DNA of 64,000 bases from positions 1 through 64,000 of the forward strand of contig JBFIHX010000001.1 in the NCBI GenBank assembly GCA_041601615.1, in the 5' to 3' direction. How positions within the stretch are numbered: position 1 is the first letter of the stretch; each line of letters starts with the position of its first letter. The notes under the pieces are model-generated. The model did not search any database, was not told the DNA's origin, and saw only the letters and a list, made by a program, of their open reading frames with translations. Of this stretch, positions 1-54,720 are shown piece after piece. This DNA comes from Thermoplasmatota archaeon. Its GTDB lineage: Archaea > Thermoplasmatota > E2 > JACPAO01 > JAHFTW01. The position numbers and the translations under genes are program-made.

Positions 1-109
1 ACGGATCATCGCGCAACTGCTCAAGAGCCAAGCGAAGGGCCTTGCGCGGCCCCGGGGTGAGCCCCCGAAAAAACGCGACCGCGCCTTCGTCTTCAAGAAC
101 GAGTTTCAC
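1..109 (-). CDS. RelE/ParE-like toxin, N-terminal part (runs off window)
   Basis: A GTG at 109-107 overlaps the antitoxin TGA (106-108). Hand translation gives VKLVLEDEGAVAFFRGLTPGPRKALRLALEQLRDDP, resembling a RelE N-terminus. Confidence 0.55.
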   Translation of the reverse strand, partial: MKLVLEDEGAVAFFRGLTPGPRKALRLALEQLRDDP

Positions 110-300
110 AAGTCATCCAGATTTGTCCACGAATATTGCTCTGGATTCAGGAGTTTTTGGCGTTCCGCCGTGAGAAACGCCTTGCGGTCTGTTTCGTCGA
201 GCACGCGATTGATGATATCGTCATAGGTCATTCCGGCCAAGCCATGGGCGCGGATGCGATCCCGCGTCATGCCCTCCACCTGAATGGTCGTTTTCGCCAT
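106..300 (-). CDS. Ribbon-helix-helix antitoxin-like protein
   Basis: TTIQVE..TRDRI....TYDDIINRVL matches the pattern of archaeal RHH antitoxins; it is translationally coupled to the downstream ORF. Confidence 0.7.
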   Translation of the reverse strand: MAKTTIQVEGMTRDRIRAHGLAGMTYDDIINRVLDETDRKAFLTAERQKLLNPEQYSWTNLDDL

Positions 301-305
301 CAACC

Positions 306-332
306 ACTATATGGTGCCATGGTGGCTATAGT
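306..332. promoter_or_regulatory. Putative TA promoter/operator
   Basis: Inverted repeat ACTATA(306-311)...TATAGT(327-332) just upstream of the antitoxin start. Confidence 0.35.
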
Positions 333-390
333 CATTGTGGCCCAAGGTTGAACCCAGCCAACTGGCGCTTCTGGACTCCAAGGCATGGAA

Positions 391-459
391 ATCTAACGGT
401 CGAAGTGACCCGCGCGCCGACGCGCGCGGCGGCGCGTCGGGTCGAGTGATTTGTTATCT
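391..459 (-). repeat. attC site 1
   Basis: Minus strand reads AGATAAC-AAATCACTCGACCCGAC...CGGGTCACTTCGACC-GTTAGAT, an imperfect palindrome with AAC/GTT cores, 2 nt after the stop of the 462-1889 gene. Confidence 0.9.
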
Positions 460-461
460 CG

Positions 462-1829
462 CTACGACGTGCCATCGTCCACCTGGAACAATGATGCTGC
501 CAGATCAGTGTCTGGGGCGATGCCGGCCAGCCAAGACCCAACGGCTCCATGTTCATCAATCCATAGGCCTTGGTAGTCGCCGTACGTGGGCCACCCCAAG
601 ACACCGCGCGGCGAGCTTGGTTCGAGAGGTTCGGCCGTAAGGTTCTGCGCAGTCAAGCCACCGCTAGAATCGATTCGGGTGACTCCGGGTTGAACCCGGC
701 CGTCTGGCTGGGTGACGTAGTGCGTGACAATGATATTGCCCGCGCTATCCGCGACGACCGCAGGAATGGCGGGACTGGGCCCAGCCGATTGAGCAAGGAT
801 GAGGTCCGTCCACGTCTTGCCGCCATCCCTCGACCGCTGCAGGTGCACGGTCTCCCATCCCTCTTCGTCAGGTTGGCCATAGACCAGTAGGATCTCATTT
901 CCAGCGGCAGCCATCTGCGTGGGGGCAACGGCGTGCATTCCCTCGAGCGGCTTCACATACCAAGAAGCACCCCCGTCGGTTGATGATGCCAGAACCAAGG
1001 CGGTTCCTGTACCATCCGGCCCGCGATTTCGCATGGCCACGAACAGGTGGCCTTCGTCGGTTATGGCGGGTCGCCCACCTCGGAGGGTGCCCGCGTCGCT
1101 TACCAATGTCGGCTCAGACCAGCTTCTGCCGCCATCTGTTGAGACGGCACTTGCAACATCTTGTGACATGGTACCATCAGGTGCGAATTCCTGGATAATC
1201 CAAATGGTGTGAACGTCACCATTCGGGGCGAGACTCATGAATGGCTGGTCATTCATTGTACCGAGACTTTGGACCCCTGTTACTCCGAGCGTGTCTGATA
1301 CGAAAGCAGCCTCGGGCCAGGTACGCCCGCCGTCCTCGGATCGCGCAACGGCGATGTCAAAGCTCTCCCACGCGGGAATCAATGCCTCCGGCGGTCCTTG
1401 CATGCCGCGACCGACCATTGCACTGTAGAGGGCAGTTCCGTCAGGAAGGAAAAGAACCCATGGATCAGCGAATGATTGTGCAAGCGCAAGCGGGTGGTCG
1501 GCAGAGACGTCGCCCGGGAACGAGCTTGACTCAAACGTCCCTCCGCCGTCAAAAGACACGTGATAATTAAGACCGACCGGCCCGCTGACTGGGTCCGTTC
1601 CTTTCCATGAAGATGAACCAATTAGGATGTTATCGGGATTGGTGGGGTTACGCGCGACGGCACTTTCAAAGGAATGCGTGGTTGACCCATCAACTGTGCG
1701 CATGCAGGGTCCAATGCAAATGGGGGGTGCCGCGTCAAGGTCTTCGGACTCGCCGCCTTCTCCAGGGCTGCCAAGGCACCCGGAAAGGACAGCGACCGCA
1801 AGTACGACAAGTAGCTTCGTCGACGACAT
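462..1829 (-). CDS. Secreted BNR/Asp-box (sialidase-like beta-propeller) lipoprotein, cassette-borne
   Basis: Lipobox VLSGCLG and repeated S.DGG.(T/S)W Asp-boxes. Start placed at MSSTKLL; the ORF extends to 1889. Confidence 0.8.
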   Translation of the reverse strand: MSSTKLLVVLAVAVLSGCLGSPGEGGESEDLDAAPPICIGPCMRTVDGSTTHSFESAVARNPTNPDNILIGSSSWKGTDPVSGPVGLNYHVSFDGGGTFESSSFPGDVSADHPLALAQSFADPWVLFLPDGTALYSAMVGRGMQGPPEALIPAWESFDIAVARSEDGGRTWPEAAFVSDTLGVTGVQSLGTMNDQPFMSLAPNGDVHTIWIIQEFAPDGTMSQDVASAVSTDGGRSWSEPTLVSDAGTLRGGRPAITDEGHLFVAMRNRGPDGTGTALVLASSTDGGASWYVKPLEGMHAVAPTQMAAAGNEILLVYGQPDEEGWETVHLQRSRDGGKTWTDLILAQSAGPSPAIPAVVADSAGNIIVTHYVTQPDGRVQPGVTRIDSSGGLTAQNLTAEPLEPSSPRGVLGWPTYGDYQGLWIDEHGAVGSWLAGIAPDTDLAASLFQVDDGTS

Positions 1830-1916
1830 GCGGTCCGTCAGGATGGTCCCCCTGCAAGAAGTTGTTGCGGCCGCCCCACCGGGGCCCACACGGATAGAGC
1901 TACCCGGGCAACAGCG

Positions 1917-1978
1917 AGATAACGGCCTCGAACTAACCCGCCGAGCGTAGCGAGGTCGGGTTGAGTGAGTCGTTAGGT
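1917..1978 (-). repeat. attC site 2
   Basis: Minus strand ACCTAAC-GACTCACTCAACCCGAC...CGGGTTAGTTCGAGGCC-GTTATCT. L''/L' pair (ACTCAACCCG / CGGGTTAGT) with a single extrahelical C. Confidence 0.92.
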
Positions 1979-2551
1979 GTCGCTTGTCGGAGCAAAACGT
2001 AGGCTAAACGTCAGCCGGTGTTCATCACAATATCGCGTGGGCACGCCGGCCCTATGGATGATTGCCCCGTCGAATACCACGAGCCGGCCGGGTTTCACCC
2101 CAACGCAGATTTGGGGCTCGCCTTGATCGTTAAAGATTATCGTTTCCCCACCCCATTCATGATCCCATTCGTGATTTACCATATATAAGAATGATATTTC
2201 CCCATCAGCATCATGTTGCGAACCGGAATCGTTGTGGGAGAAAGTGTAGCTGCCAAAGGAAAACAGATTGCAAAACACTCGCCGCAAACGGTAGGTTTTC
2301 CCAGATGTCTCTGGCATTTCGTTCAGGATTTTTTCGCAAGCCTGGGCAAGCCAATGCTCCGCGAAATCATCCACATCAAATGAAGCGACCCACTCCTTGA
2401 ACTTCCTCGTCTCTTCCTTCGATGCTTGTAGACAACTGAAATTCGCAATCAACATTGAATGGTGAAAGCGCAAAATTGCCTGTGGGTCGAAGAGGCCGTC
2501 GAATACATGCACGAAGTGCCCATCAACATTTTCGCTTCGATCTGCGTTCAT
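1973..2551 (-). CDS. 2OG-Fe(II) oxygenase (prolyl-hydroxylase-like), cassette-borne
   Basis: HxD motif (SHND), WxxxWGGET, GRLVVFDGAIIHRAG and RLTFSLRF. The stop TAA lies inside the attC R'' box. Confidence 0.85.
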   Translation of the reverse strand: MNADRSENVDGHFVHVFDGLFDPQAILRFHHSMLIANFSCLQASKEETRKFKEWVASFDVDDFAEHWLAQACEKILNEMPETSGKTYRLRRVFCNLFSFGSYTFSHNDSGSQHDADGEISFLYMVNHEWDHEWGGETIIFNDQGEPQICVGVKPGRLVVFDGAIIHRAGVPTRYCDEHRLTFSLRFAPTSDT

Positions 2552-2591
2552 GCTTTCAGCTGGCTAAATCCAGATACGTGCACATAGGCAA

Positions 2592-2762
2592 TCAGCGTAG
2601 CCCCAATCCCATCCGATCGTTCATTCTCATGCTAATCATCTCGAAGTCCTGGGGTGTGTTTACCATTGCTGACCTCTGTTCGAGTTGCGTAATCCGGTTT
2701 TCATAATGGCTTGACGAAACATCTTGGTCGCCGTTGGCCGGGGTTCGGGTTCCTTCGCTCAT
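2592..2762 (-). CDS. 56-aa small peptide (not in ORF track), same cassette as the oxygenase
   Basis: Hand-translated ATG..TGA: MSEGTRTPANGDQDVSSSHYENRITQLEQRSAMVNTPQDFEMISMRMNDRMGLGLR. It fills the cassette 5' part. Confidence 0.55.
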   Translation of the reverse strand: MSEGTRTPANGDQDVSSSHYENRITQLEQRSAMVNTPQDFEMISMRMNDRMGLGLR

Positions 2763-2837
2763 AGACTAGCCTGTGTGCCGAAATGGGGGTGCGCGTAATT
2801 GCGTTTTCGGTCGGCCCGGAGAAGGGTTACCTGCGAC

Positions 2838-2919
2838 ACCTAACGATTCGAACTGACCCGCCGCTCGCGAAGCGAGCCTGCGAGCAAAGCGAGTGGTCGG
2901 GTTGAGTGATTTGTTAGGT
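2838..2919 (-). repeat. attC site 3
   Basis: Plus strand ACCTAAC-GATTCGAACTGACCCG...GTCGGGTTGAGTGATTT-GTTAGGT. Confidence 0.92.
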
Positions 2920-3149
2920 GGCACCATAGAAGGACAGAGCAGAATGCCACCAGAGACCCCGACAGGCCATGTTCACCGCCGTTCAGCGGGAATTCCGCGA
3001 CCTAAGCGAAGGTTGTGTCGCGGCCTCCGCATGGTGACGCAATGCGCACTGCACCGCACTTCCAATGCAGCGATTTGGCCCGCGTCCTTCTCCCCGACGG
3101 CTCCACGATTTTGACAACCTATAAGGGCGCCGTTTTGCTTGTAAAAAAC

Positions 3150-3455
3150 ATGTCTTCCGGCATGGATCCGGCATTTATTGGTGCGATAGTGGCCATCGCG
3201 ATTTCCTTGGTGGGTTCAACCGTTTTTTTGGTTTGGAGCCGCCGACGAATGCCGGTAGGGGCACGTATCGTTTTTTCTCTGGTCGGTCCAGTCGGCTTGT
3301 ACTTTCTCGCCATCAACCTTGAGAATTTACCGCCCTTCGTCAGCAATGGTAGCCGCGACGCCAGCTTAATCATGCTACTGGGGATCGTACTGGGCCTCAT
3401 GCCATTTATTGTGACCCGGGCCTGGATTCGCGTTCGGCAAACACAGCGCGAGTGA
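3150..3455 (+). CDS. Small 3-TM membrane protein, inverted within its cassette
   Basis: Three hydrophobic segments; TATA-like CTATAAG at ~3119-3125 upstream of ATG 3150. Confidence 0.6.
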   Translation: MSSGMDPAFIGAIVAIAISLVGSTVFLVWSRRRMPVGARIVFSLVGPVGLYFLAINLENLPPFVSNGSRDASLIMLLGIVLGLMPFIVTRAWIRVRQTQRE

Positions 3456-3565
3456 AAACTGCTGAATTTCCGAAGACTTGGCCGCCTATCGCGATATAGA
3501 TCGGGCCAAATGAGCGTGAGCACGTGGAGCCTTACCACGGACCGTTTATTGCCAGTCACGGGTCC

Positions 3566-3639
3566 ACCTAACGGCCTCGAACTAACCCGCCGGGCGCCGG
3601 AGCGCGCGGAGGCGCGTCGGGTCGAGTGATTTGTTAGGG
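3566..3639 (-). repeat. attC site 4
   Basis: Plus strand ACCTAAC-GGCCTCGAACTAACCCG...GTCGGGTCGAGTGATTT-GTTAGGG; the right half is nearly identical to attC 1. Confidence 0.92.
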
Positions 3640-3765
3640 GGCGGTCGGCTGCAACAAGTTGGGCAGAGCATCATCTGGCTTCGGCCCGGCAGTCCACTCG
3701 AGCGAAATTTTAACTAGGTTGGGGCAAGCCAGCAGCTGCTGAGATTTCAGGGCGAGATCATGTTC

Positions 3766-4023
3766 TCAAGTAGATCGATCGATGACGCGTAGCTCCAACT
3801 CGTGTTGTGGAAAGTCTTCTGCCATTTGTTGGGCTAGGCGGCGAGCGGTCGGCTCGTCACTGGCCCGTATTTCAAATTCGCCAATGGTGCCCCCAAACCA
3901 GAGGTATCCATAATCTTCGACACCATCTGGATGGTCACGTCGCTCCCAAGGCCCTTTGTCTTCTTGAAAACGGGCAGGCATCCTAGCTGAGAAATGGCGA
4001 ATCGTGACCGCGAAGGTATGCAT
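3766..4023 (-). CDS. Hypothetical protein (85 aa), first cassette of array 1
   Basis: ATG-started ORF in cassette orientation with globular composition. Confidence 0.6.
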   Translation of the reverse strand: MHTFAVTIRHFSARMPARFQEDKGPWERRDHPDGVEDYGYLWFGGTIGEFEIRASDEPTARRLAQQMAEDFPQHELELRVIDRST

Positions 4024-4083
4024 GTCTTACACAAGCCCAACTGGGCTATTTGACTATGGGCTGCTACTGTGCCCGAAGAGACT

Positions 4084-4119
4084 GCCACCTAACTACTCCT
4101 TCACGGGTTTTCCCCTAAA
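4084..4119 (-). other. Putative attI-like cassette entry site
   Basis: Minus GTTAGGTGGC matches 9/10 to the attC4 R'' complement, with no attC hairpin. The flank is shared with 30223-30251. Confidence 0.6.
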
Positions 4120-4140
4120 GTGTAGCCATTGCAGAGGCGC

Positions 4141-4148
4141 TTATATAA
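4141..4148. promoter_or_regulatory. TATA box, candidate Pc-like cassette promoter
   Basis: TTATATAA in a GC-rich context, ~50 bp upstream of the array entry site. Confidence 0.45.
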
Positions 4149-4383
4149 TACTGGAGCGCAGCATTTCTCACAAGCCTGAATCCCCTCCAAGGAATCCCTA
4201 TCCAGAGTACATTCAACTACCCCATTCGCGGTGTTATGTGGACGCGACATAATACTGATTGATCATCAAAGAAGCATACTCGGGGCGTTTCGACGACGAG
4301 CATCATAATCGAGTGCTTCATGCATCTCCGATTGGCCTCCCCTATGGCCCTCGTCACGCACGGATCCCGCGTACCGGCGCAAC

Positions 4384-5097
4384 GTGCTCGATTCTCAAAG
4401 GGACGGACCAATTCAAGCTCGCCCGGTGTTTCGCCCTCGCAGTGGCTCCCGTTTCCCAACTCCTTCAAGACCCCTGGGCCTCCCCGTTCTGTTGCCCGAC
4501 TCGAATCCGGTTGTCCTTGTGCATGGCATTCTAGGCCAGCGGCACCTGTATTGGAATGTGTTCAAGCATCGCCTTCGTCAAGACGGCTTGCGCTACCATG
4601 ATTGCATTTTGCCGTATGGGATGCTTGGCGATATGCGCATCGCGGCGCAGTACCTCAAGGACAAGGTGGATGCTTGCTTGCGGCACGACGACTCGAAGAT
4701 GGTGTCGCTTGTTTGCCATAGCGCTGGCGGCCTCGTGGCTCGGTACTATTTGATGTACTTGGGCGGCAGCAAGCACGTGGATCGCGTGGTGTTTTTGGGT
4801 ACCCCACACCAGGGCACCTATTCGTCCTACTTCCTCGGCCTTCCCGTTCTGCTTCAAATTGCCAAGCAGGCTCGTCCGGGCAGCCACTTTCTCGACGAAA
4901 TCAACGGCCCGGGAGCGATTATGCCGGGCGTGCGGTTCTACAACCTCTGGTCGCCCATTGATGGAGTGGTGATTCCGAGCAACAACAGCAAACTTGCCGG
5001 CAGCCACTCGCGGAAGTTGCCGTGGACGACGCATTGGGGTTTCTTGTGGCGAAGCGATGTGTACGCCACCGTGCACGAGTGCCTGCATACCGCGTAG
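4384..5097 (+). CDS. Alpha/beta hydrolase (lipase/esterase)
   Basis: PVVLVHG, nucleophile motif CHSAGG, GTPHQG, DGVV and a C-terminal His. Confidence 0.85.
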   Translation: MLDSQRDGPIQARPVFRPRSGSRFPTPSRPLGLPVLLPDSNPVVLVHGILGQRHLYWNVFKHRLRQDGLRYHDCILPYGMLGDMRIAAQYLKDKVDACLRHDDSKMVSLVCHSAGGLVARYYLMYLGGSKHVDRVVFLGTPHQGTYSSYFLGLPVLLQIAKQARPGSHFLDEINGPGAIMPGVRFYNLWSPIDGVVIPSNNSKLAGSHSRKLPWTTHWGFLWRSDVYATVHECLHTA

Positions 5098-15154: not shown

Positions 15155-16105
15155 CTATGCTCGGCGCAGCAAATGAAGACCGAACCAGCCGCGCTGGTCG
15201 GTCCAGGTCTTTTCGAGTTCGAAGCCGGCGGCCTTGGCAAGCTCTCGGGCGCCCTCGATGGTGAATTTGTACGAGTTTTCCGTGTGGATGGTTTCGCCAC
15301 GGCGCAACTCCACGTGCAAGTCGGCGCCGGGGAAGCTCATGGCTTGGTCGTGGCGGCTAACCAGGTGCATTTCAATGCGGCTCTCTTCTGGATTCCAGAT
15401 GGCTCGGTGCTCGAATCCATCGAGGTCTGCATTGCCGTCCAGCTCCCGGTTCAGGTGCACTAGGATGTTCTTGTTGAAAGCCGCAGTCACTCCAGTAGCA
15501 TCATCGTAGGCGGCCTCAAGGATTTCCACGGGCTTGACGAGGTCGGTTCCCAACAGGAACGCGTCTCCGGGGCTCAGCGCCTCGAAGGCGGCACGAAGCA
15601 AGCCGACCTGTTCGGGAGGCTCAAAGTTGCCGATGCTGCTGCCCAAAAACAGGACGAGGCGGCGCGTGGCGGGGTAGGCGCCAATTTGTTCGAGGCCATC
15701 CTTGTATTCGGCAGCAATCGGCTCAACTTTGAGGCCCGCAAATGCGGTATGCAAGTCGGCTGCGACCGCGTGCAAAAAGTCGCCACTGATATCCACGGGT
15801 AGGTAGGTGCTGGGCCCCCGGGCTTTGAGGAGGGCTTCGAGCACAATTCGGGTTTTGCTGCTGGATCCACTTCCAAGCTCCGCAAGCACCAGGTCCGGGC
15901 CTGCGGCGGCGAGGATATCGTCGACGTGCGCCTCGAGGATCGCAGCTTCCGTGCGCGTGGGGTAGTATTCAGGTGTCCCGCAGATTTGTTCAAACAAGTG
16001 GCTGCCGGCCTCGTCGTAAAAATAGAGGGAGCTGAGCCACTTTGGGTCGTCGAGCAAGCCGCGCCGGGTGTCGTCCACGATTCCCTGGCTCGTGAACGAT
16101 TCCAT
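15155..16105 (-). CDS. egtD: L-histidine N-alpha-trimethyltransferase
   Basis: YFYD..GS.LFEQI...PEYYPTRTE, ELGSGSSSKT, AYDDATGVTAAFN, IHTENSYKF. Confidence 0.95.
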   Translation of the reverse strand: MESFTSQGIVDDTRRGLLDDPKWLSSLYFYDEAGSHLFEQICGTPEYYPTRTEAAILEAHVDDILAAAGPDLVLAELGSGSSSKTRIVLEALLKARGPSTYLPVDISGDFLHAVAADLHTAFAGLKVEPIAAEYKDGLEQIGAYPATRRLVLFLGSSIGNFEPPEQVGLLRAAFEALSPGDAFLLGTDLVKPVEILEAAYDDATGVTAAFNKNILVHLNRELDGNADLDGFEHRAIWNPEESRIEMHLVSRHDQAMSFPGADLHVELRRGETIHTENSYKFTIEGARELAKAAGFELEKTWTDQRGWFGLHLLRRA

Positions 16106-16136
16106 CTCCAACACACTGGACACTGGCGGGCATCCA

Positions 16137-17507
16137 TCAAAAAGAAGGGGGTTCGGGGCTGGAGTCGCGTGCGAGGCGAATGCCCGAAAAAATTTGGCGC
16201 CGATAGGGGTGGTCCCAGTTGCGGAAGGTGCCGGTGGCGCATCCAGCACGGGAGGCCCAGCAGCCGCCGCGAAGCATTTTGTAGTCGCCTCCGAAGAAAA
16301 CATCGGAATATTCAGGGTAGGGGAATGCCCGGAATCCAGGGTACGCTTCAAACCCGGAGGAGGTCCACTCCCAGACGTCCCCGATCATGTGCTGCGCTCC
16401 GCCGGGACTGGCGGCGCTGGGGTATGCGCCGATGCGACTGGGGTGCCATGCGAGTTGGTCGATGTTGGCGTGGGCTGCGGTCGCGGGGGTGTTGCCCCAT
16501 GGATTGCGGCGGCTCTGGCCCGTGGCCGGGTCGAATCGGGCCGCTTTTTCCCACTCTGCTTCCGTAGGAAGTCGGGCACCGCGCCAATTTGCATAGGCTT
16601 CTGCCTCGAAGTGGGTCACATGGCACAGGATTTCGTCCGGAATGGAATCGATGCGAGTGGCGCCGGAGGGGGAAACGCGCCACCTAGTGCCGTCCCGTTG
16701 CTCCCAATTCAAGGGCGCGTGGTGCGGTTCGTCGTCAAGCCATTGCGTGCCGCGCTCGCTCCAAAGCTGGGCATTCTCGTAGCCCCCTGCCTCAATGAAC
16801 TCCTTGTATTCGCCCACGGTCACGGGGTAACGAGCAATTTGGAAGGCGGGGACGTGGACTTCGTGCGCCGGGGCTTCGTTGTCGTAGACGCCCGGAGCTT
16901 GGTGGATGCCCATGGTGAAGGGGCCCTCGGGAATCGTCAGCCAATTGGGAGCTGTAGGTTGGCTCGGCTCCGGAAGCGCCCAAGTTTGAGAAATTTGGTA
17001 CCGGTCCGGTCCGAGCAATTGGATGGATTGCAGGAGTGTTTCCTGGTGTTGGTGCTCGTGCAACACGATGAGCCAGTAGACGAAGCCGTCTCGAAGCAGG
17101 GGCGTGGTTTCCGCGTCGTCCATCTGGATGTCTTCGAGAACCGAGGCAGTGCGGTCGCGTACCTCTGCCATGTAGGCTCGCGCTCCTGCCCGGTCTAGGA
17201 GCTTCAGGTTCGGCCGTTCGCTGCGCGGGTGGGCAAACGCGTCGTATCGGTCGTTGTCGCCTGCGTGCAACTCGCCGCACCCCAGCAAGTTCTGTACGAG
17301 CCACAATTCCTCGAAGTTCGCCATGTGGCCCAAGTCCCAGACAGGCGGGCTCAGATACGAGGCGGCCGGCGCTTGCAAGTCCTTGTCGGTAAAGCCGCTG
17401 GCCAACTGCCAAGTTCGTTCCCGGGCTTCCGAGAGGGCGGCCAGAATTGTGGCCTTGTCGGCACTGGGCGTCTGCATCAGAGCATCTACGGATTGCGCCG
17501 CAGCCAC
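16137..17507 (-). CDS. egtB: Ergothioneine sulfoxide synthase (DinB_2 + FGE-sulfatase domains)
   Basis: SPPVWDLGH, HEHQHQET, RLPTEAEWEKAA, FRNWDHP.RRQIFSG. The start may be 17477. Confidence 0.93.
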   Translation of the reverse strand: MAAAQSVDALMQTPSADKATILAALSEARERTWQLASGFTDKDLQAPAASYLSPPVWDLGHMANFEELWLVQNLLGCGELHAGDNDRYDAFAHPRSERPNLKLLDRAGARAYMAEVRDRTASVLEDIQMDDAETTPLLRDGFVYWLIVLHEHQHQETLLQSIQLLGPDRYQISQTWALPEPSQPTAPNWLTIPEGPFTMGIHQAPGVYDNEAPAHEVHVPAFQIARYPVTVGEYKEFIEAGGYENAQLWSERGTQWLDDEPHHAPLNWEQRDGTRWRVSPSGATRIDSIPDEILCHVTHFEAEAYANWRGARLPTEAEWEKAARFDPATGQSRRNPWGNTPATAAHANIDQLAWHPSRIGAYPSAASPGGAQHMIGDVWEWTSSGFEAYPGFRAFPYPEYSDVFFGGDYKMLRGGCWASRAGCATGTFRNWDHPYRRQIFSGIRLARDSSPEPPSF

Positions 17508-22911: not shown

Positions 22912-24165
22912 GTGGGCGCCGAAGAGTGGACGGAGCGGCAAAAATACACGTTCAAGCGGACGATTGAGGAGCTTGGCTCTTATCGCGGCATGGGCACCGA
23001 ATTGGTGACGCTCTACATTCCTCCAACTCGGCAAATTTCGGACGCAGCGGCGATGCTGCGCGACGAAATCGGCCAAGCGTCCAACATCAAGTCCAAGCAA
23101 ACGGCGACGGCGGTGCAGTCCGCGCTCACGTCCATGCTGGCGCGCCTCAAGCCGTACAAGCAGACGCCGCCGACGGGCCTTGCGTTGTTTGTGGGCACGG
23201 TCGCGGCGGGTGGCAACAAGACGACGCAAGTGGCGCACGTCATCGAGCCCCCGGCGCCGGTCGCAACGTACCAATACCGCTGCGATTCCACGTTCAACAT
23301 TGAGCCCTTGAAGGGCATGATGGACAACGAGGAAGTGTACGGACTCGTCATCGTGGACCGCCAAGAATGCAGCATTGGCTTGCTGCGTGGCAAGCACATT
23401 CAATCCATGCTCAACAAGCAAAGCATGGTGCCCCGCAAGCACGGAAAGGGTGGCCAGTCCCAGCGTCGTTTTGAGCGCCTGACGGAGGAAGCGGCCAACC
23501 ACTGGTTCGTGGATGTGGGCGATCGTGCTTCGGAGATTTTCCTCAACGAGCCGAATTTGAAGGCCGTCATCATTGGCGGGCCGGGCCCAACGAAGGACTA
23601 CTTCCACACGGAAGGCTACCTGCACCACGAGATCGAAAAGAAAGTGCACGCGCAGACGTTCGACACGGGTTACACGGACGACGACCAGGGCCTGAAGGAA
23701 CTGGTCCTGGCCGCAAGCGAAGCCATCACCGGCATCGGCATGATGGAGGACAAGAAGCTCATGCAGCGCTTCCTGAAGGAGACGGCCAAGCCCGACGGAG
23801 GGCTAGCAGAGTATGGTGAAGAAACCGTGCGCCAGGGCCTCGAAATGGGTGCCGTGGAGCACTTGTTGGTCTCCGAAGACATGCGCCGCAAGCGATTGAC
23901 GTTCACCCAGCGCAAAACCGGCGCCATCGTGCAAAAGACCGTGCAAGACCACAAGGTCTCCATGGCGTTTGACGAAATGGCCAAGGAATGGGGAGGCGCA
24001 AACAACGTCGAGATGGAGGAGAAGGACCTCATCGAGGAATTATCCGACATCGCCGAGAGCAACGGCACCATCGTCCACATCATCGGAGCCGCCAGTGAGG
24101 AAGGCGGCATCCTGCGCAATGCGTTTGGCGGAATTGTGGGCATCCTGCGGTTCCGGTTCCGGTAG
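22912..24165 (+). CDS. prf1: Peptide chain release factor aRF1
   Basis: ASNIKS, YRCD, KHGKGGQS and AFGGIVGILRF. Start inferred at GTG 22912. Confidence 0.97.
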   Translation: MGAEEWTERQKYTFKRTIEELGSYRGMGTELVTLYIPPTRQISDAAAMLRDEIGQASNIKSKQTATAVQSALTSMLARLKPYKQTPPTGLALFVGTVAAGGNKTTQVAHVIEPPAPVATYQYRCDSTFNIEPLKGMMDNEEVYGLVIVDRQECSIGLLRGKHIQSMLNKQSMVPRKHGKGGQSQRRFERLTEEAANHWFVDVGDRASEIFLNEPNLKAVIIGGPGPTKDYFHTEGYLHHEIEKKVHAQTFDTGYTDDDQGLKELVLAASEAITGIGMMEDKKLMQRFLKETAKPDGGLAEYGEETVRQGLEMGAVEHLLVSEDMRRKRLTFTQRKTGAIVQKTVQDHKVSMAFDEMAKEWGGANNVEMEEKDLIEELSDIAESNGTIVHIIGAASEEGGILRNAFGGIVGILRFRFR

Positions 24166-24395
24166 AGCCCGTAGGGCCCGGCAGAAACCGGATGCCGTGG
24201 TCAGGGGTCGCCGGAGGCGTGCCCCTGCGCTCAATGATCGACCTTTTGCAAGGTCGGTGGGCATCCTGCGGTTCCGGTTCCGGTAGAGCCCGTAGGGCCC
24301 GGCAGAAACCGGATGCCGTGGTCAGGGGTCGCCGGAGGCGTGCCCCTGCGCTCAATGATCGACCTTTTGCAAGGTCGGTGGGCATCCTGCGGTTC
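24136..24395 (+). repeat. 121-bp tandem repeat (2 full copies plus 18-bp partial) overlapping the aRF1 3' end
   Basis: GTGGGCATCCTGCGGTTC recurs at 24136, 24257 and 24378; the intervening sequences are identical. Confidence 0.95.
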
Positions 24396-24467
24396 TAGTT
24401 CCGTTTGGTCTACGTCTTTCCACCAGGTCCGCGCCTTGCCCGCCTCGCAGAAACGGCGTGTTCACTT

Positions 24468-24758
24468 TCAGTCTGGGTTCCAATGCGGATCATCGGGGTC
24501 GTGGCTGTCGAAATCAGGGTGGTGCCGGCCCCAGCCACTGAGAATCATCACGGTGCCTGTGACGATGATGCCGAGGCCACCCATGCCAAACAAGGCGCCG
24601 GTGGTGACTGCGTCGTCGGGGGCGCCTTGGGCGGATGTGTAGCCGTAGATGACGATGGAGATGGCGGCTGCCAGTATGAAGCCTCCGAGGAGGACGAAGA
24701 ATTCGCCGAGGTGTCCAATTTCTCCGTCTCCCTGGTGGAGTCGCTTGAGGATGAACAT
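24468..24758 (-). CDS. Small 2-TM membrane protein
   Basis: Two hydrophobic helices and a His/Asp-rich tail. Confidence 0.65.
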   Translation of the reverse strand: MFILKRLHQGDGEIGHLGEFFVLLGGFILAAAISIVIYGYTSAQGAPDDAVTTGALFGMGGLGIIVTGTVMILSGWGRHHPDFDSHDPDDPHWNPD

Positions 24759-24818
24759 GCTCTTCTTTTGGCGCGGGAGCGGAAAAGAGCGCGGCGGGGT
24801 CCGTTTGGGGCGTGTGGC

Positions 24819-25523
24819 CTATTTTTTGCGCCGGGCAAGGAGGCGGCGGCGCAAGGGGCCGGTGGCGAGGCTGAGGCTGTGTCCCCAGACTTTGGCTCGT
24901 GCGGTGTGTCTGCCGCCGACGATGCATTGGCCGCGCCGGATCCGGTCGAGTACATCGTCCACGGTGACCGGCGGGTCGGGGAAGACGGTGTATGCGGTGC
25001 CGATGTCGCGAATCCAATGGGCGTCGCTGCCGCCGAGGGGGCTGACGCCGAGTTCGCTGACGAGTTGGCGCGTATTTTCTTGCACGAGACGCCGTTCGCG
25101 GGCGTTGAGGGCTTCGATGGCGACGATGGCGCCGTCGTCGGTGTGTCTGTGCAAGGCGGTGGGGCCCATGCCGCTGATGAGACGCAGGGGGTGAGCGGGG
25201 ACGACGAGTCCGCCTTGGGCTTCGACGAGGTCGCGGGTTTCTAGGAATCCGAGGCCCCGCGGCACTTCTTGGCTGACGCCGAGGGCAAGAAGGTGTCCTT
25301 CTGCGGTGGTGACTTCGATGCCGGGGACAATCAGCATCCCGGTTTTTTCACGGGCTTCTTGGATTTCGGTGTGGCCGGCGATGGTGTCGTGGTCGGTGAG
25401 GGCAAATCCGTGCATGCCTGCAGCTTGGGCCGCTTGTGCGAGTTCCAAGACAGTGCCGCGTGCGTCTTTGCTGTGGTGGCTGTGGACGTGGCAGTCGAAG
25501 CGGAAGCCGGGGCCGGGGCTCAT
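24819..25523 (-). CDS. PHP domain phosphoesterase
   Basis: DCHVHS, LTDHD, GHLLALG, PAHP, GGSDAH. Confidence 0.92.
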   Translation of the reverse strand: MSPGPGFRFDCHVHSHHSKDARGTVLELAQAAQAAGMHGFALTDHDTIAGHTEIQEAREKTGMLIVPGIEVTTAEGHLLALGVSQEVPRGLGFLETRDLVEAQGGLVVPAHPLRLISGMGPTALHRHTDDGAIVAIEALNARERRLVQENTRQLVSELGVSPLGGSDAHWIRDIGTAYTVFPDPPVTVDDVLDRIRRGQCIVGGRHTARAKVWGHSLSLATGPLRRRLLARRKK

Positions 25524-27736
25524 CGGATGGTAGCTCCTGGAGGCATGGGGCGCTGTGGATTGAGGACCGAGACGGTTCCGTCGTGGTCGGCGGCGAGGAT
25601 CATGCCTTGGCTTTCGATGCCACGAAGCATTGCGGGAGCGAGATTGGCCACGAAGGCGACCGTTTGGCCCACGAGTTCATCGGGCGTGTAGTATCCGCGC
25701 AGGCCCGCGACGACCTGGCGCTCCCCGAGATTGCCCACGTCGAGGCGCATTACGAACAGTTTGTCGGCTTTCGGGTGTTCTTCCACGCTCTTGATGGTAG
25801 CGATGCGTAGCTGGACTTGTTGGAAGGTCTTGAAGTCCACGAGGCCGTCGGGTGCGTCGGCGGTTGCCTGGGCGGTGGTCGTTTTCTTGGCTGCGGCGGC
25901 TTGTGCTTCGGCCTTGGCCTGTTTGGCTTGTTTTTCGGCGTCTACCTTGGCTTTTTCCTCGGCTGCGGCTTCTTCGGCGCCGGGGAGCTGCTTGGGGTCG
26001 AGTTTCCGGAATAGCGCCTGGGGCATCGGCAGTTCGTGGCCGCTTTGCAACGGAGCCGTGGCGGCACTCCAGGGCGCGTTGTGGATGCTGCCTTCTTCGC
26101 CGAGCATCTGCCATGTTTTCTGGGCGGCGTCGGGCATGTAGGGTGCCATGAACACTGCGAGCGCCTTGACGATGCGCATCAAAGAATAGAGCGCGTCGGT
26201 GCCGGCGGCGGGGTCCTGCTTCAGAAGCTTCCAGGGGGCGGCTTCTTGCATGGTCTGGTTGCCCCAGCCAGCAAAATTCAACAGGCGGCGCACCGCTTTC
26301 TTGAGTTCCACGGCACCGAGGCGGGTCGCCATGTCGCGGCTGCAGGCTGCGATTTCGGCAAGTACCGCTTTGTCAAGGTCGCTGTCCGCGGGAGCGGGCG
26401 GAATGGCTCCGAGGTTCTTTTGCGAAAAGGAGAGGACGCGGTGGACGAGGTTGCCCATGGTGCCCACCAGTTCGTCGTTGACTTTCGAGAGGAAGTCTTC
26501 CCAGGTCCAGTCGGCGTCCCGTTGCTCGGGCATGTTGACCGAGAGGTAGTAGCGCACCGCGTCAGACTGGTACCGGTCGAGTACGTCATGAACTCCGATG
26601 GTGACGCCGCGCGATTTGCTAAATTGCTGGCCCGAGAGATTTAGGAACTCGTTGGCCGGCACGTCGTAGGGCAAGACAAGGGTCTTGTGTCCGTGCTTGG
26701 CGCGCCATTCGTTGTACGCGATGAGGATGGCGGGCCAAATGATGGTGTGGAATGGGATGTTGTCCTTGCCCAGAAAGTAATAGCTCTTGGATTCGGGGTT
26801 GGTCCAGTAGTGTTGCCAGCCGTTTTTCTGGGCCGGAGCGGCGGCACCGGGCACGCCCGTGGCAAGGTTTGCGGCTCCGTTGGGCAGGTCTTCAAATCCG
26901 GCACCTTCGGGCATGGATCGTGCACCCCATTCCATAGCGGCAGTGAGGTAGCCGCAGACGGCTTCGAACCAGACATAGATGCGCTTGTCCTCGAAGCCTT
27001 CCAGGGGAATCGGCACGCCCCACGTTAGATCGCGGGTGATGGCGCGGTCTTGCAGGCCCTCCTTGAGCCAGTTCTGGGTGAAGTTGATGGTGTTGCTGCG
27101 CCAGTGGCCGGCGTTTTCAGCGACGTACCGTTCTAGTTTTGGTTGCAGTTTCGAGAGCAGGAAGAAGAAGTGGTCCGTGTCGCGAAACTCAATGGGGGTA
27201 TCCGGGTTGAGTTTGCTTCGAGGGTCCTTCAATTCCTGCGCGTCGAGGGTCTTGCCGCAGTTGTCACATTGGTCTCCGCGTGCGTCCGCCGCGTCGCAGT
27301 GGGGGCAGGTGCCTTCCACGTAGCGATCGGGCAAGAATCGGCCCGCAACAGAGTCGAACGGCGCTTGCTGGGTGCGCTTTTCGATGTAGCCCATTTCCAG
27401 GCACGCCTTGAAGATCTCCTGGACGCGCTCCGCGTGGCTCGCCGTGCTCGTGCGGGTGAACAAATCAAAGCCAATGCCGAGGCGGCGAAGCGCATCCACG
27501 TGGTCCGCGTGGAACTCATCCACGACCTCCATGGGTGTGCGGCCCTCGCCTTCGGCCTTGAGCAAAATCGGCGTTCCGTGGCAGTCCGATCCCGAGACCA
27601 TCAACACATCATGGCCCGCCATGCGCTGGTAGCGCCGGAAAATGTCAGGAGGCAGCAAACTGCCGGCGACATGGCCAAGATGCAAGCCGCCGTTGGCATA
27701 GGGCCACGCGACGCCGATCAAGATGGGACTGGACAC
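25520..27736 (-). CDS. metG: Methionyl-tRNA synthetase with C-terminal tRNA-binding domain
   Basis: AWPYANGGLHLGH, Zn-knuckle CPHC/CDNC, GKDNIPFH, FSKSRG, SQGMILAA. Confidence 0.98.
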   Translation of the reverse strand: MSSPILIGVAWPYANGGLHLGHVAGSLLPPDIFRRYQRMAGHDVLMVSGSDCHGTPILLKAEGEGRTPMEVVDEFHADHVDALRRLGIGFDLFTRTSTASHAERVQEIFKACLEMGYIEKRTQQAPFDSVAGRFLPDRYVEGTCPHCDAADARGDQCDNCGKTLDAQELKDPRSKLNPDTPIEFRDTDHFFFLLSKLQPKLERYVAENAGHWRSNTINFTQNWLKEGLQDRAITRDLTWGVPIPLEGFEDKRIYVWFEAVCGYLTAAMEWGARSMPEGAGFEDLPNGAANLATGVPGAAAPAQKNGWQHYWTNPESKSYYFLGKDNIPFHTIIWPAILIAYNEWRAKHGHKTLVLPYDVPANEFLNLSGQQFSKSRGVTIGVHDVLDRYQSDAVRYYLSVNMPEQRDADWTWEDFLSKVNDELVGTMGNLVHRVLSFSQKNLGAIPPAPADSDLDKAVLAEIAACSRDMATRLGAVELKKAVRRLLNFAGWGNQTMQEAAPWKLLKQDPAAGTDALYSLMRIVKALAVFMAPYMPDAAQKTWQMLGEEGSIHNAPWSAATAPLQSGHELPMPQALFRKLDPKQLPGAEEAAAEEKAKVDAEKQAKQAKAEAQAAAAKKTTTAQATADAPDGLVDFKTFQQVQLRIATIKSVEEHPKADKLFVMRLDVGNLGERQVVAGLRGYYTPDELVGQTVAFVANLAPAMLRGIESQGMILAADHDGTVSVLNPQRPMPPGATIR

Positions 27737-27765
27737 GCCGCGAGCACGCCGAGAAGCACTCTTAC

Positions 27766-28038
27766 ATGCTTCGCCACGGGTCGACCCTTGTGGAGGCGTA
27801 CCTCATGCACCGCGTCGATGCCGCCCGGCGACTCATGAGTGTCCCCCGGCGCGGCGCAGAGGCCAGCGGACGACTGTTTCTTGCCAAGCGATGCCACGAA
27901 GTCGCCAAGGCCGGCGGAGACGTTTTGGGGCAGTTGGATGCGATTTTGGCGGAGGTACTGGATGGGTTGTCGGAAGGGGCGCACGAAGGGGCGAAGTTGG
28001 AGGCGGGGGAGATTCTGGAAGGGTTGAAGCAGGGTTGA
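27766..28038 (+). CDS. Hypothetical protein
   Basis: Helical-looking 90-aa ORF divergent from metG. Confidence 0.45.
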   Translation: MLRHGSTLVEAYLMHRVDAARRLMSVPRRGAEASGRLFLAKRCHEVAKAGGDVLGQLDAILAEVLDGLSEGAHEGAKLEAGEILEGLKQG

Positions 28039-28126
28039 GCAAGGACCTGGGCGCTGGACTCTACGGAGCGTGCATCACAAACTGATTTGCATACGGGATG
28101 GCATGTGTCAAGAGGTAAAACTTGGG

Positions 28127-28190
28127 GGTCGACGGTTGAGCAAAGCCGTATCGACCGGAGGTGGAGGTTCGTTTGAGCGATTTGTTAGGC
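28127..28190 (-). repeat. Degenerate attC site 5
   Basis: Right half TTGAGCGATTTGTTAGGC fits the family; left half GTCGAC-GGTTGAGC is eroded. Confidence 0.6.
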
Positions 28191-28345
28191 GTCCGGCTCG
28201 TCAGGCGTGCGCACGCTAGCGCAATCATGAGTGCGACATGCGATTCTGGCTACTACCTGTTGAATCAGCAGCAATTAGGCGGAATGGCGCTCGGGGGCCT
28301 TTCTCGGTCCGGTGCATTCATCCCCCGCGCGTCCGTCCCGGATTC

Positions 28346-29275
28346 ATGACGGAACACGAGTTGATTGCCATGTCCCCTGGATGGATTCGGGCCGGTGAAG
28401 TCGGGGCGCAAGCATTGGCAGCGGGCAAGGCAGCGTCTGTTCCAGGTGCCCGTGCGTACGATGTAGCCATCGCAATGGAAGAATGCATTCGCTCGGCCGG
28501 CCTCGAACCAGCATTTCCGGGCACCGTCAGCATTGATTCTATGGCTGCACACTGGTCCCCAACGCGCGCCGATGACCGAATCCTAGAGGAAGGCCAACTC
28601 GTGAAACTCGATTGTGGAGCCAGCTATCTTGGCGACCTCTCTGACAATGCATTGACGATTGAGGTCGGCGGAACCAACGAACACTCGGCCTTGATTCGGA
28701 CGGCAGAAGCATGCCTGACGGCGGCCATAGATGCCGTGCGCCCGGGGCTAAACCTAGGCGAACTCGGAGCCATCGTCGAAGCAACCGCAGAGGACCACGG
28801 GTTCCAGACCATCGAGAACCTAGGGGGCCATTCACTCGAGCGAAACAAACTCCACGCCGCCTTGTACGTTCCAAGCATTGGAATGAAGACCAAGCAGGTG
28901 CTCAAGGCCGGAGATCGATTGGCAATCGAACCATTCGTAACGGATGGCCGAGCAGGACGCGTCCAAGATGCCGGACCCAGCAACGTCTACCAACTCCGGC
29001 GGCCACAGCCACAACGGGCCCCCGCCCCGAAACGATTGCAAGACCTCATCCAGCGAACCCACCCGCACCTTGCGTTCTCCTCGCGCTGGCTTGAAGGCGT
29101 CATGGCCCCCGCTCAACTGTCCTTCGCACTGAACCACCTGCAGCGGACCAATGTATTGACCCACTACACGGCCCTTCGTGAAGCCAGCGGCGGCATGGTT
29201 GCCCAACGAGAAGCCACGGTGATGGTCTCCGACGATGGCGGCTACGTTACCACAAGACAGCCCGCCGCCGCGTAG
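28346..29275 (+). CDS. map: Type II methionine aminopeptidase (divergent), inverted within a cassette
   Basis: PAFP, AAHWSP, VKLDCG, SDNALT, NLGGHS, LAIEPF and VAQRE metal ligands plus the type II insertion. Confidence 0.9.
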   Translation: MTEHELIAMSPGWIRAGEVGAQALAAGKAASVPGARAYDVAIAMEECIRSAGLEPAFPGTVSIDSMAAHWSPTRADDRILEEGQLVKLDCGASYLGDLSDNALTIEVGGTNEHSALIRTAEACLTAAIDAVRPGLNLGELGAIVEATAEDHGFQTIENLGGHSLERNKLHAALYVPSIGMKTKQVLKAGDRLAIEPFVTDGRAGRVQDAGPSNVYQLRRPQPQRAPAPKRLQDLIQRTHPHLAFSSRWLEGVMAPAQLSFALNHLQRTNVLTHYTALREASGGMVAQREATVMVSDDGGYVTTRQPAAA

Positions 29276-29343
29276 GCACGAAACCCGACGGGACCATGAA
29301 CGCACGGGCGCTTTCGATTGGTAGTTGGGTCAAGACTGGTGAC

Positions 29344-29410
29344 GCCCAATGATTCGAACTGACCCGCTCCAAGCCGTAGGCGAGGAGTCGGGTTGAGTGA
29401 CTTGTTATCC
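29344..29410 (-). repeat. attC site 6 (R' core mutated)
   Basis: GCCCAAT-GATTCGAACTGACCCGCTCC...GGAGTCGGGTTGAGTGACTT-GTTATCC. Arms are nearly identical to attC 10, but AAC has become AAT. Confidence 0.88.
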
Positions 29411-29422
29411 GCCGTCGGGCAA

Positions 29423-30154
29423 TTACGTCCTCTGGGTGAATACAACAATTGTTTGCCAGCCCAACCAGGCCAGCGCGAGCAAGAGGACAAGAGCCATCGC
29501 CTCCGTTTGAAACGCGGGAATTACTGCCGCCATCGCCGACACGATTGCAATTTGAATGGCATAGTAAAGCGGAATAATAATGACGACTCGCCCAAGTTCT
29601 GCTTGAACCATGGATCCAACGTGACGCATCGCAGCCACCGACTCCTGCTCCAAATCGGCGTACCTCGCAGTAGCCCGCAAAGCCGACCACGGTGCGCGCC
29701 GCGCCTTGGCGCCTCCGGCGAGGAACTTCATTGAGATTTGCCACGCATGCCGGGTGGGCACTTCATCGACTGAGTCTCCCACCAAGGTGCCGCCATCCAT
29801 TGCAGCGATGGTCTGCTGGTGAACGGGCTCGAGCATGTCGACCAAGTTGCGGGCGATGGCCCGCATTTCCGATTGGAGATTCATGTAATAGGCGCCGAAA
29901 ATTGCAATCATGGCCAGCGCACCAGGGATCAGGGCAAGTTGAAAGGACGACGAAGGTGAGAGCCAACCGAGCTTTGATCCCGCCATAAGATCCACGAGGA
30001 AAGCCAAACCAATCAGGAAGCCAATCCGCCAGATGTAGTGCAGAAAGTTCTTGCCCATGGCTGCCAACTCGTTGCCGCCGTCGACCGTATTTGCCGATTG
30101 CATCAAGGCGCTGCCTACGGTGCGGGCGTTATGCCAGGTGGACGGTTCTTTCAT
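29423..30154 (-). CDS. 4-TM membrane protein, cassette-borne
   Basis: 2+2 TM topology; stop lies 12 bp from the attC. Confidence 0.7.
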   Translation of the reverse strand: MKEPSTWHNARTVGSALMQSANTVDGGNELAAMGKNFLHYIWRIGFLIGLAFLVDLMAGSKLGWLSPSSSFQLALIPGALAMIAIFGAYYMNLQSEMRAIARNLVDMLEPVHQQTIAAMDGGTLVGDSVDEVPTRHAWQISMKFLAGGAKARRAPWSALRATARYADLEQESVAAMRHVGSMVQAELGRVVIIIPLYYAIQIAIVSAMAAVIPAFQTEAMALVLLLALAWLGWQTIVVFTQRT

Positions 30155-30215
30155 GCTCTAACAAAGGCGTCACGCCACTTACACTGCTCGCTTCCAGTAT
30201 GGCGCCACGGCCCCC

Positions 30216-30251
30216 GGGGGATAACTCCTACCTCAGCGGTTTTCCCCTCAA
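30216..30251 (-). other. Putative attI-like cassette entry site
   Basis: Minus GTTATCCCCC; 23/29 identity with 4091-4119, including GGTTTTCCCCT. Confidence 0.6.
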
Positions 30252-30413
30252 CCCCCCTCCGTAACCCATACTCCCCAAACCGCCCACATCCCTTCCCCGA
30301 AGCGCCCTTCAATCGAAGCGAGAACTTCATCCAAAACCAGAATCCCATTCAGCCACCGGCCTGTCCGCGCGAAATATCCAAAAAGAAAAAGGAAGAAAAA
30401 AATCGGATGAATT

Positions 30414-30665
30414 CTACGCGCCCGGATCCGCCCATCCCTCTTTCCCAATCATCACGGCGAAGACGCCGAAGCCAACACCCAACACAATCATCAGGATGCC
30501 GAGGATCATGCCGTCGGTGACGACGCTTGCGCCTGCGATGCCGTGTCCGATGAGGCTGCTCATGCTGTAGGTGGTGGTGGCGATGCCGAAGATGCCGATG
30601 GCGACGCCGAGCCAGAGGAAGATGCCTTTGAAGACGCCTGTCTCGCCGTGGTTGTCGTGTTCCAT
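30414..30665 (-). CDS. Small 2-TM membrane protein
   Basis: Two TMs, followed by an oligo-T tract on the minus strand (~30380-30402, terminator-like). Confidence 0.65.
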   Translation of the reverse strand: MEHDNHGETGVFKGIFLWLGVAIGIFGIATTTYSMSSLIGHGIAGASVVTDGMILGILMIVLGVGFGVFAVMIGKEGWADPGA

Positions 30666-30688
30666 GTGCCCTGGCGAGGTGCCGGACT

Positions 30689-31081
30689 TTATGACGATTC
30701 AGGTTGCTCTTCGAGGCGTTGGCCGCCGGCGTAGGCGAATCGGATGGCGACGATGCCTGCGACCATGAGGAGGGCCAGGAATCCGTACAGGACGCCCCAT
30801 TGGTCGCGTGCGTGGCGAGTGACGAGGGCGGCGGCGAGAAGGCAGCTCGTGGCGCAGGCGGTGAGGCCGGAGGCAAGGAGGCCTCGGTGTCGAAGCATGC
30901 GTCGCGGTGGGCCTGGGCTTGCCATCTCGCGTGCTAGGAGTCGGTAGATCCAGGCGCCGAATGCTAGGATGGCGACGAGTCCGAGGCCGACGCCGAAGAT
31001 CCAGCGGCTCCAGCCGTAGACGGCGAGGAGGGCGACGGTGGCGGCGAGGAGGGTCCAGGCGAAGATGCTGGGTCGGTCCAC
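30689..31081 (-). CDS. 4-TM membrane protein
   Basis: Hydrophobic segments; start inferred at GTG 31081. Confidence 0.6.
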
Positions 31082-31130
31082 GCGGTTGGATTGCACATAC
31101 GCCTTGAAGGGCGCTTGCGTCGGGGGCTTT

Positions 31131-50516: not shown

Positions 50517-50580
50517 GGATCCTGGTTGAACTGACCCGCCGTGAGCGGGGCGAGTGGTCGCGTTGAGCGATTTGTTGGGC
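50517..50580 (-). repeat. attC site 8 (R' core destroyed)
   Basis: GGATCCT-GGTTGAACTGACCCG...GTGGTCGCGTTGAGCGATTT-GTTGGGC; AAC is replaced by CCT. Confidence 0.8.
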
Positions 50581-54224: not shown

Positions 54225-54226
54225 GG

Positions 54227-54682: not shown

Positions 54683-54720
54683 AGATTGTGAGGGGCGCCA
54701 TAGTTCTTGAACCCAGCTAA

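Follow-up and report, generated by a model that had tools for sequence, protein, structure and literature searches.

The question raised by this locus is how cassette arrays that have no integrase gene begin, and whether such arrays can carry attachment sites (attI) of their own. Integrons typically have one attI near the integrase gene (intI), and attI is poorly described outside class 1 (PMC9024848). Since the attI of most integrons is unknown, the definition of the integrase-less arrays termed CALINs takes no account of it (Cury et al., 2016, PMC4889954), and the origins proposed for integrase-less arrays include loss of intI, rearrangement, and insertion at secondary sites (PMC4889954; Loot et al., 10.1101/2022.09.11.507474). 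Integrons of archaea have been published together with two putative archaeal attI sites adjacent to intI (Ghaly et al., 2022, PMC9668308). The literature searches and the paper texts considered here yielded no report of dispersed attI copies that lack an intI and head separate arrays.

The stretch of DNA analysed, referred to below as the window, comprises the first 64,000 nucleotides of the 436-kb contig C1 in a 30-contig metagenome bin of a Thermoplasmatota archaeon (2.79 Mb, 93% complete, 0.28% contamination), with genes for a TATA-binding protein and for a small-subunit rRNA of archaeal type. A repeat family of the window (D3, n = 9) represents the attC sites of three arrays, which sit amid housekeeping genes including those for acetyl-CoA synthetase, PheRS, MetRS, HerA, and Hef. 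Cassette ORFs lie on the minus strand and end immediately ahead of each attC, and the attC arm that adjoins the ORF end has extra bases, according to a reading of the aligned repeats; the arrays are therefore read on the minus strand, and the motif described below stands upstream of arrays 1 and 2.

The motif at the heads of arrays 1 and 2

The first-pass annotation had aligned two stretches of the window, 4091–4119 and 30223–30251, and had regarded them as an attI-like entry motif heading two arrays. Both stretches were recovered, with 23 of 29 positions identical in a gapless alignment (counted by eye). On the minus strand, the motif of array 1 reads GGGGAAAACCCGTGAAGGAGTA/GTTAGG and that of array 2 GGGGAAAACCGCTGAGGTAGGA/GTTATC, where the slash marks the start of the GTT; the positions of these and other features are collected in Table 1. 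When up to one mismatch is allowed, the pattern AAC-N12-GGTTTTCCCC is found twice in the window, where 0.09 occurrences would be expected; two or more matches occurred in 0 of 100 shuffles, which confirms that the recurrence of the motif is not due to chance.

It had further been proposed that arrays 1 and 2 begin at a GTT without an attC hairpin, and the predicted folds agree with this. The motif regions have DNA-fold z-scores of -0.3 to -1.6 and leave the GTT box unpaired, while control attCs at 3562–3642 (z -1.9) and 2838–2922 (z -3.2) fold into hairpins closed by paired end boxes, and an eroded attC of array 2, also used as a control, forms the inner stem only (z -2.1). A search for the hallmarks of attC, that is, paired RYYYAAC/GTTRRRY ends and extra bases in one arm, found neither a partner box nor a hairpin in the motif regions, unlike the flanking repeats of the arrays, in which attC-type paired ends are present. 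A small hairpin predicted in the core of array 1 was discarded, since there was no such prediction for array 2.

Table 1. Features of the window associated with the three attC arrays.
Feature	Position	Strand	Remarks
attI-type core heading array 1	4090–4123	-	crossover G at 4093 (G/TT at 4093/4092–4091); profile E 2.8e-12
attI-type core heading array 2	30222–30254	-	crossover G at 30225; profile E 6e-9
Copy of the whole C16 intI–attI intergenic region	4090–4257	-	95.8% over 168 nt to C16:15779–15946
Distal conserved box, top strand CGCGTCCACATAAC	4233–4246	-	in C16, just upstream of the intI start codon
Alpha/beta-hydrolase (lipase-like) gene	4384–5097	+	divergent from array 1, at the place expected for intI
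Array 1, first cassette	3572–4092	-	ORF 3766–4023 (85 aa, no Pfam match), attC 3566–3639
Array 1, further cassettes	1–3571	-	attCs 2838–2919, 1917–1978, 391–459
Array 1, 2OG-Fe(II) oxygenase ORF	1973–2551	-	
Array 1, BNR-repeat protein ORF	462–1889	-	
Array 1, attC + strand ends	435–460, 1954–1979, 2895–2920, 3615–3640		repeat family D3
Array 2, first cassette	29344–30224	-	ORF 29423–30154 (243 aa, no Pfam match), attC 29344–29410
Array 2, second cassette	28115–29343	-	degenerate terminal attC ~28115–28190
Array 2, attC + strand ends	28166–28191, 29386–29411		repeat family D3
Array 3, attC + strand ends	50556–50581, 53686–53711, 54200–54225		repeat family D3

The complete integron and the identity of the motif

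The sole integron integrase gene of the genome is located on contig C16 (15954–17261) and encodes 436 aa without internal stops; the product scores 415.8 bits against a TIGR02249 cut-off of 265 and contains the SAM-like and catalytic integrase domains. The motif is present at C16:15780–15812, 150 nt from the intI ATG (15954), with intI divergent and an array of 11 attCs on the opposite side, and this copy thus occupies the canonical attI position between intI and array. A tblastn search for IntI remnants outside C16 returned only matches with E of 1.4 or higher genome-wide and nothing below E = 1.8 on C1. Approximately 100 residues of the C16 protein (15954–16268) precede the part matched by the integron-integrase model, and the intI genes of relatives are likewise long open frames of 400–450 aa.

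Among 401 sampled genomes of the phylum, 10 contained integrases over the cut-off, at 11 loci, one of which had no upstream sequence. A site of the form GGAAAACC-NN-TGAATAAC-AA/GTT adjoins intI at nine of the 10 related Thermoplasmatota loci with upstream sequence; upstream of the intI of G059, no such motif was found. The description of the motif as attI-like is accordingly upheld by its occurrence beside the only intI of this genome and by the retention of the same site type beside the intI of relatives. As judged from these sequences, the conclusion holds that the motif represents the putative double-stranded attI of this archaeon's integron, of which the window contains two of seven integrase-less copies.

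Distribution of the copies in the genome

A genome scan with AAC-N12-GGTTTTCCCC, suggested in the first-pass annotation, returned six related copies and one unrelated match. A profile built from six copies gave eight matches at E <= 0.003 in the whole genome, the next best having E = 19; the two weaker copies are C5:149977 and C13:32813, and no further copy in the genome was detected when the profile was widened to 27 family members. In contigs C1, C5 (200 kb), and C13 (64 kb), two copies apiece lie in the interior with differing flanks, and the small contigs C16 and C25 also bear copies. The presence of multiple orphan copies, as had been claimed, is borne out: seven of the eight have neither an intI nor a remnant of one beside them, and all head attC arrays. 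Orphans are found on long contigs, and housekeeping genes flank the copies on C1 and C5.

To delimit attC clusters, a profile of the 5′-arm was used, which gave 52 matches at E <= 0.1 that fall into 21 same-strand clusters. Each of the eight motif copies precedes a cluster with which it agrees in orientation, at a distance of 452–1895 nt from the first attC; such cluster-head windows make up only ~1.5% of the two strands of the genome. No same-strand attC was found within 4 kb upstream of any of the eight copies, and the motif never stands between cassettes. The other 13 clusters comprise three whose head is <=270 nt from a contig end and 10 that are motif-less, of which five are single matches. 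The motif is therefore missing from 10 of the 21 clusters, including array 3, which does begin at an unrelated GTT, as the contrary expectation had it; the motif-less clusters indicate that an array can exist without an attI.

Two features of the arrangement may be mentioned. The C13 copies at 32779 (minus strand) and 51342 (plus strand), which form a sub-family with the box GAAGGAC, are positioned back to back, 18.5 kb apart, with their arrays pointing outward. Three orphans (C5:150003, C5:18826, and window 30225) follow a co-oriented host gene at 140–170 nt from its end, the genes ahead of them being the ribonucleotide reductase small chain, a PAC2-family gene, and an 83-aa ORF, so that read-through could express their cassettes.

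The conserved core and the crossover point

Similarity among the eight copies is limited to ~30 nt and ends exactly at G/TT. Mean identity over the 28 pairs is 0.30 from -60 to -31, 0.71 from -30 to -1, 1.00 in the GTT, and 0.29 from +4 to +33; since identity falls right after the GTT, the boundary coincides exactly with the canonical crossover, and only the core, not its flanks, is conserved. The GTT is invariant in 8/8 copies, with a different cassette beyond it in each, and the bases that follow the G (TTAGGT, TTATCC, TTAGAC, etc.) resemble the attC R′ boxes of this genome, which is the outcome expected of attI x attC insertion.

The core common to the eight copies consists of an R-box-like repeat at -27, GGAAAAC at -20 to -14, TGAA at -10 to -7, and an A directly preceding the GTT. 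An alignment of 27 family members, most of which were retrieved with a pattern fixing the columns concerned, shows GGAAAAC (-20 to -14), T (-10), AA (-8 and -7), A (-4), and AGTT (-1 to +2) to be invariant or nearly so. The GTT is present in 27/27 of these sequences, most of them having been retrieved by a pattern that requires it, and an R-box-like GTT at -27 to -25 is present in 17–18 of 27. The same conservation is seen in the nine integrase-adjacent sequences, which were found by position alone. At the crossover, the family consensus forms the inverted pair ATAAC-AA-GTTAT, which resembles the simple site of bacterial attI; the attI of class 1 has four IntI-binding boxes. The box beside the GTT is GAAGGAG or a close variant in six of the eight copies, including the one next to intI, and not the GAATAAC of the family, a point that counts against use of the sites in trans; GAGGTAG is found in one copy, and GAATAAC is kept only in C5:149977.

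TATA-like boxes upstream of the core

The TATA-like sequence TTATATAA, on which the proposal of an archaeal promoter for array 1 was based, is located at 4141–4148 and is palindromic. Its centre lies ~51 nt upstream of the crossover G, and C16 contains the same box at the same offset. The genome contains seven occurrences of TTATATAA against 5.1 expected, two of which are in the attI regions of C1 and C16. TATA-like boxes at -57 to -47 were also identified in C25 (TATATAAA) and in the relatives G102 (TTTATAAG), G026 (TTTAAAAC), G097 (TTTTATAC), and G118 (TTTAAGG), and none was found at that offset in the other copies. No clear BRE was seen by eye beside TTATATAA. The archaeal TATA box is centred ~26 nt upstream of the transcription start. 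It is plausible that TTATATAA is a candidate archaeal Pc-like promoter for the cassettes, for a former intI, or for both; its palindromic form in C1 and C16 could let it act for intI as well, now or in the past.

Array 1 as a copy of the intergenic region of the integron

At array 1, similarity to C16 extends from the core over the whole intI–attI intergenic region (Table 1) and stops ~10 nt before the position of the intI ATG, with no intI beyond. The cassettes of array 1 and of C16 have only attC sites as common sequence. The distal box CGCGTCCACATAAC is present in array 1 of C1, C16, C25, and C13:51344, and a similar box is found beside the intI of G102.

Array 1 extends to the contig start and is cut off there. 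The first 89 positions of the window match two other contigs with 100% identity, namely, the end of C11 and, in reverse, the start of C6; the assembly thus forks within a cassette, and array 1 probably continues in the three attCs at the end of C11. Three public contigs of a single study, from two other samples, agree with the window without a single difference, namely, a 519-nt contig (3607–4125) and a 1491-nt contig (4096–5586) from sample X2 and a 562-nt contig (3578–4139) from sample X3, and the 1491-nt contig links the array-1 attI region with the hydrolase flank. Unitigs break at 4096–4125 and 4217–4246, which are stretches common to other copies, and because one of these breaks falls inside the shared ~30-nt core, linkage across 4096–4125 rests on the original assembly. 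A contig from sample X4 joins the attI-like stretch at 4089 to a sequence absent here, as judged with a 14-nt probe against this genome; the junction could reflect insertion of another cassette at a site of this kind in a related strain, and the contig was set aside. Joints of attC to attC in public contigs (419 to 2896, 2916 to 3616, and others, with sides of 22–50 letters) were set aside, as they probably reflect attCs of similar sequence in other arrays.

Array 2, an array with a diverged head

Among the six strong copies, the core of array 2 has diverged furthest, and this core is all that its head has in common with the other copies; no TATA box was found upstream of it. A co-oriented ORF and a T-rich stretch precede it by ~160 nt. 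The R′ box of attC 29344–29410 is ATTGGGC, with ATT replacing the expected GTT, and the ORF of the second cassette is reversed (an M24 peptidase, 28238–29275, plus strand). To judge from these features, array 2 looks old, eroded, and largely immobilised. A search for the empty site of array 2 in two same-genus genomes matched its flanks (24500–28014 and 30380–33112) at 70–78% on separate contigs with other neighbours, and no attC or attI signals were found there. A tandem repeat with a 121-bp unit occupies 24136–24403, with two exact copies followed by the start of a third (repeat families D4 and D20).

Copies in related genomes

Multiple copies are also found in relatives. G012 has six copies and one intI, and same-strand attC matches lie downstream of four of its five intI-less copies; five of the six copies share the sub-family sequence GAACAAKGGAAAAC. 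G018 and G014 have two copies each, and a copy in G097, in which no intI was found, heads an attC. The two copies of G026 are ~95% alike over 60 nt and both head arrays. The copy on contig C6 of G026 (locus L071, 706–1882) has decayed IntI fragments corresponding to residues 5–54, 57–120, and 160–239 beside the attI, together with five attC matches, while no IntI fragments were found within 2 kb of the nearly identical second attI (L072); the former locus is a case of integrase loss caught in the act. A copy in G118 that heads an attC array likewise has only an N-terminal IntI fragment beside it. The decayed genes beside the copies of G026:C6 and G118 indicate that intI loss is a real route to orphan sites; as no remnant accompanies the seven orphans of the present genome, it does not explain these.

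The exact motif of this genome was absent from the 40 relatives searched. The single match to it in a metagenome collection was rejected as a chance match, since neither attC nor IntI accompanies it and the sequence bears no resemblance to this genome. Searching a species collection with the family pattern gave 86 stretches, of which 80 were examined; these were mostly chance matches in bacterial sequence. A 6159-nt contig assigned to an Anaerolineaceae bacterium (L111) contains the same attI-type motif with two attC matches of this genome's type downstream, so that either the contig is archaeal and was mis-binned or a bacterium has this type of integron.

Proposed origin and use of the orphan attI sites

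Our preferred reading, to which we assign a probability of roughly 0.6, is that the copies are true attI sites, that the seven orphans are served in trans by the single integrase, that this use keeps the core, and that array 1 is recent and array 2 old. The IntI made from C16 would bind the orphan cores in trans, and excised cassette circles would be inserted by attI x attC recombination at G/TT. Each orphan would then constitute a separate acceptor platform, whose own attI seeds an intI-less array and keeps that array usable. The array-1 copy would be a recent duplicate of the complete intergenic module, with a TATA box that may start transcripts ~25 nt before the crossover, reading into the first cassette, and array 2 would be an older, eroding copy without the promoter. 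A wider proposal for this archaeal lineage is that of a polycentric integron, in which attI is a copyable module, one integrase serves many dispersed attIs in trans, and most integrase-less arrays are not debris but live acceptors that attI copies have seeded, some of the copies with a TATA promoter of their own; this is offered tentatively, as we consider it somewhat improbable. Traces of the copying itself were sought around the copies, and no transposase, target duplication, or second junction was seen.

The orphans might instead be passive relics, that is, former integrons or duplicated platforms that have lost intI, whose cores are conserved only by youth or kinship and which take up no cassettes. 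Integrase loss is one of the standard hypotheses for intI-less arrays in the text of Cury et al. (2016, PMC4889954), and the decayed IntI fragments beside the attI of G026:C6 and G118, as well as the eroded attCs of array 2 (ATT in place of GTT) and its diverged core, are what relics would look like. In the same study, however, as few as 15 of 279 such arrays had an intI pseudogene nearby, and none of the seven orphans here adjoins an intI remnant. Five copies have flanks at background identity and yet a kept core, which is unlike neutral decay, and the pair that is 96% identical already has unrelated first cassettes. We therefore regard the relic explanation, the main alternative, as unlikely, though deserving serious consideration. 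That the similar heads are strain variants of one integron head, assembled separately, is suggested by the copies on the small contigs C25 and C16, by the identity of window positions 1–89 to two other contig ends, and by the unitig breaks at 4096–4125 and 4217–4246; such an artefact of assembly or binning seems highly improbable given that C1, C5, and C13 hold two interior copies each, with housekeeping flanks at C1 and C5, that the copies differ in sequence, that the 1491-nt contig of sample X2 matches the window perfectly across the junction of the array-1 attI region and the hydrolase flank, and that contamination of the bin is 0.28%.

Two further explanations concern the nature of the site. 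The motif might be a mobile unit in its own right and no fixed platform, such as a cassette-borne attI or an attI-carrying circle inserted at secondary sites, behind which arrays grew or with which they came along. Sub-families of the core (the GAAGGAC pair of C13 and the GAACAAKGGAAAAC form in five of six G012 copies), the three orphans 140–170 nt behind co-oriented host genes, and the report that class 1 cassettes bounded by attI are excised and inserted by IntI1 (PMC12901181) would suit such a unit; we nevertheless consider it very unlikely, as the 4 kb upstream are free of same-strand attCs in all eight copies, neither a second junction nor a target duplication came to light, and no empty site was recovered in same-genus genomes. 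The heads might also be attG-type hot spots, alike by coincidence and without relation to attI, for many genomic GTT sites accept cassettes (Loot et al., 10.1101/2022.09.11.507474) and array 3 does begin at an unrelated GTT. The attGs described in that text are unlike attI in sequence and structure, whereas the motif here is the same as the intI-adjacent site, with 23–30 nt common to the eight copies, and this explanation is accordingly given a very small probability.

The relation of these sites to known systems can be stated as follows. Bacterial attI, with attI1 of class 1 as its paradigm, and the two putative attIs that Ghaly et al. give for archaea are likewise hairpin-free and double-stranded, lie between intI and the first cassette, and have a G/TT crossover; R-box-like repeats and inverted boxes upstream of the crossover are a further common feature. 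The difference is that eight sites accompany one intI here, seven of them dispersed beside housekeeping genes, while the text of Ghaly et al. (PMC9668308) deals with intI-adjacent sites only. Arrays 1 and 2, with four and two attC matches in the window and with IntI encoded only elsewhere in the genome, correspond to CALINs, which according to the text of Cury et al. (PMC4889954) have at least two attCs and no intI nearby; what distinguishes the present genome is that a recognisable attI heads seven of its 20 intI-less clusters. The attG sites, as described by Loot et al. (10.1101/2022.09.11.507474), similarly have cassettes outside the integron proper that start at a GTT, but they are diverse and unlike attI, whereas the sites of this genome appear to be copies of attI itself. 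Extra or partial attI copies usable by the integrase are found in the Delta-attI-type cassettes of class 1 and 2 mobile integrons (PMC12901181); there, as far as that text describes them, the copies replace attC inside one array, while here they head distant, separate arrays in an archaeon.

The origin of integrase-less arrays is debated, and growth at spare attIs served in trans would add a testable fourth route. Copies of attI also hint at how stacks of genes without the enzyme arise and may stay usable. The nine integrase-adjacent examples make it possible to define the attI of an archaeal integrase clade, and the same design, in which alignments of intI-adjacent sequences define attI and the heads of integrase-less arrays are then scanned, could be used to survey other lineages. 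The core boxes and the TATA box provide sequence material for a first functional study of an archaeal attI.

The head of array 3

Array 3, which has no motif, begins its first cassette at G/TTAGCTGG, directly after six tandem 19-bp units of GAGGCGGGATAATACCAAG (window 54702–55968). A divergent serine recombinase gene with Resolvase and Recombinase domains (55141–55968) lies ~290 nt past the repeat, and the gene and the 19-bp repeat are each unique in the genome. The layout mimics that of intI, attI, and array, with a different recombinase.
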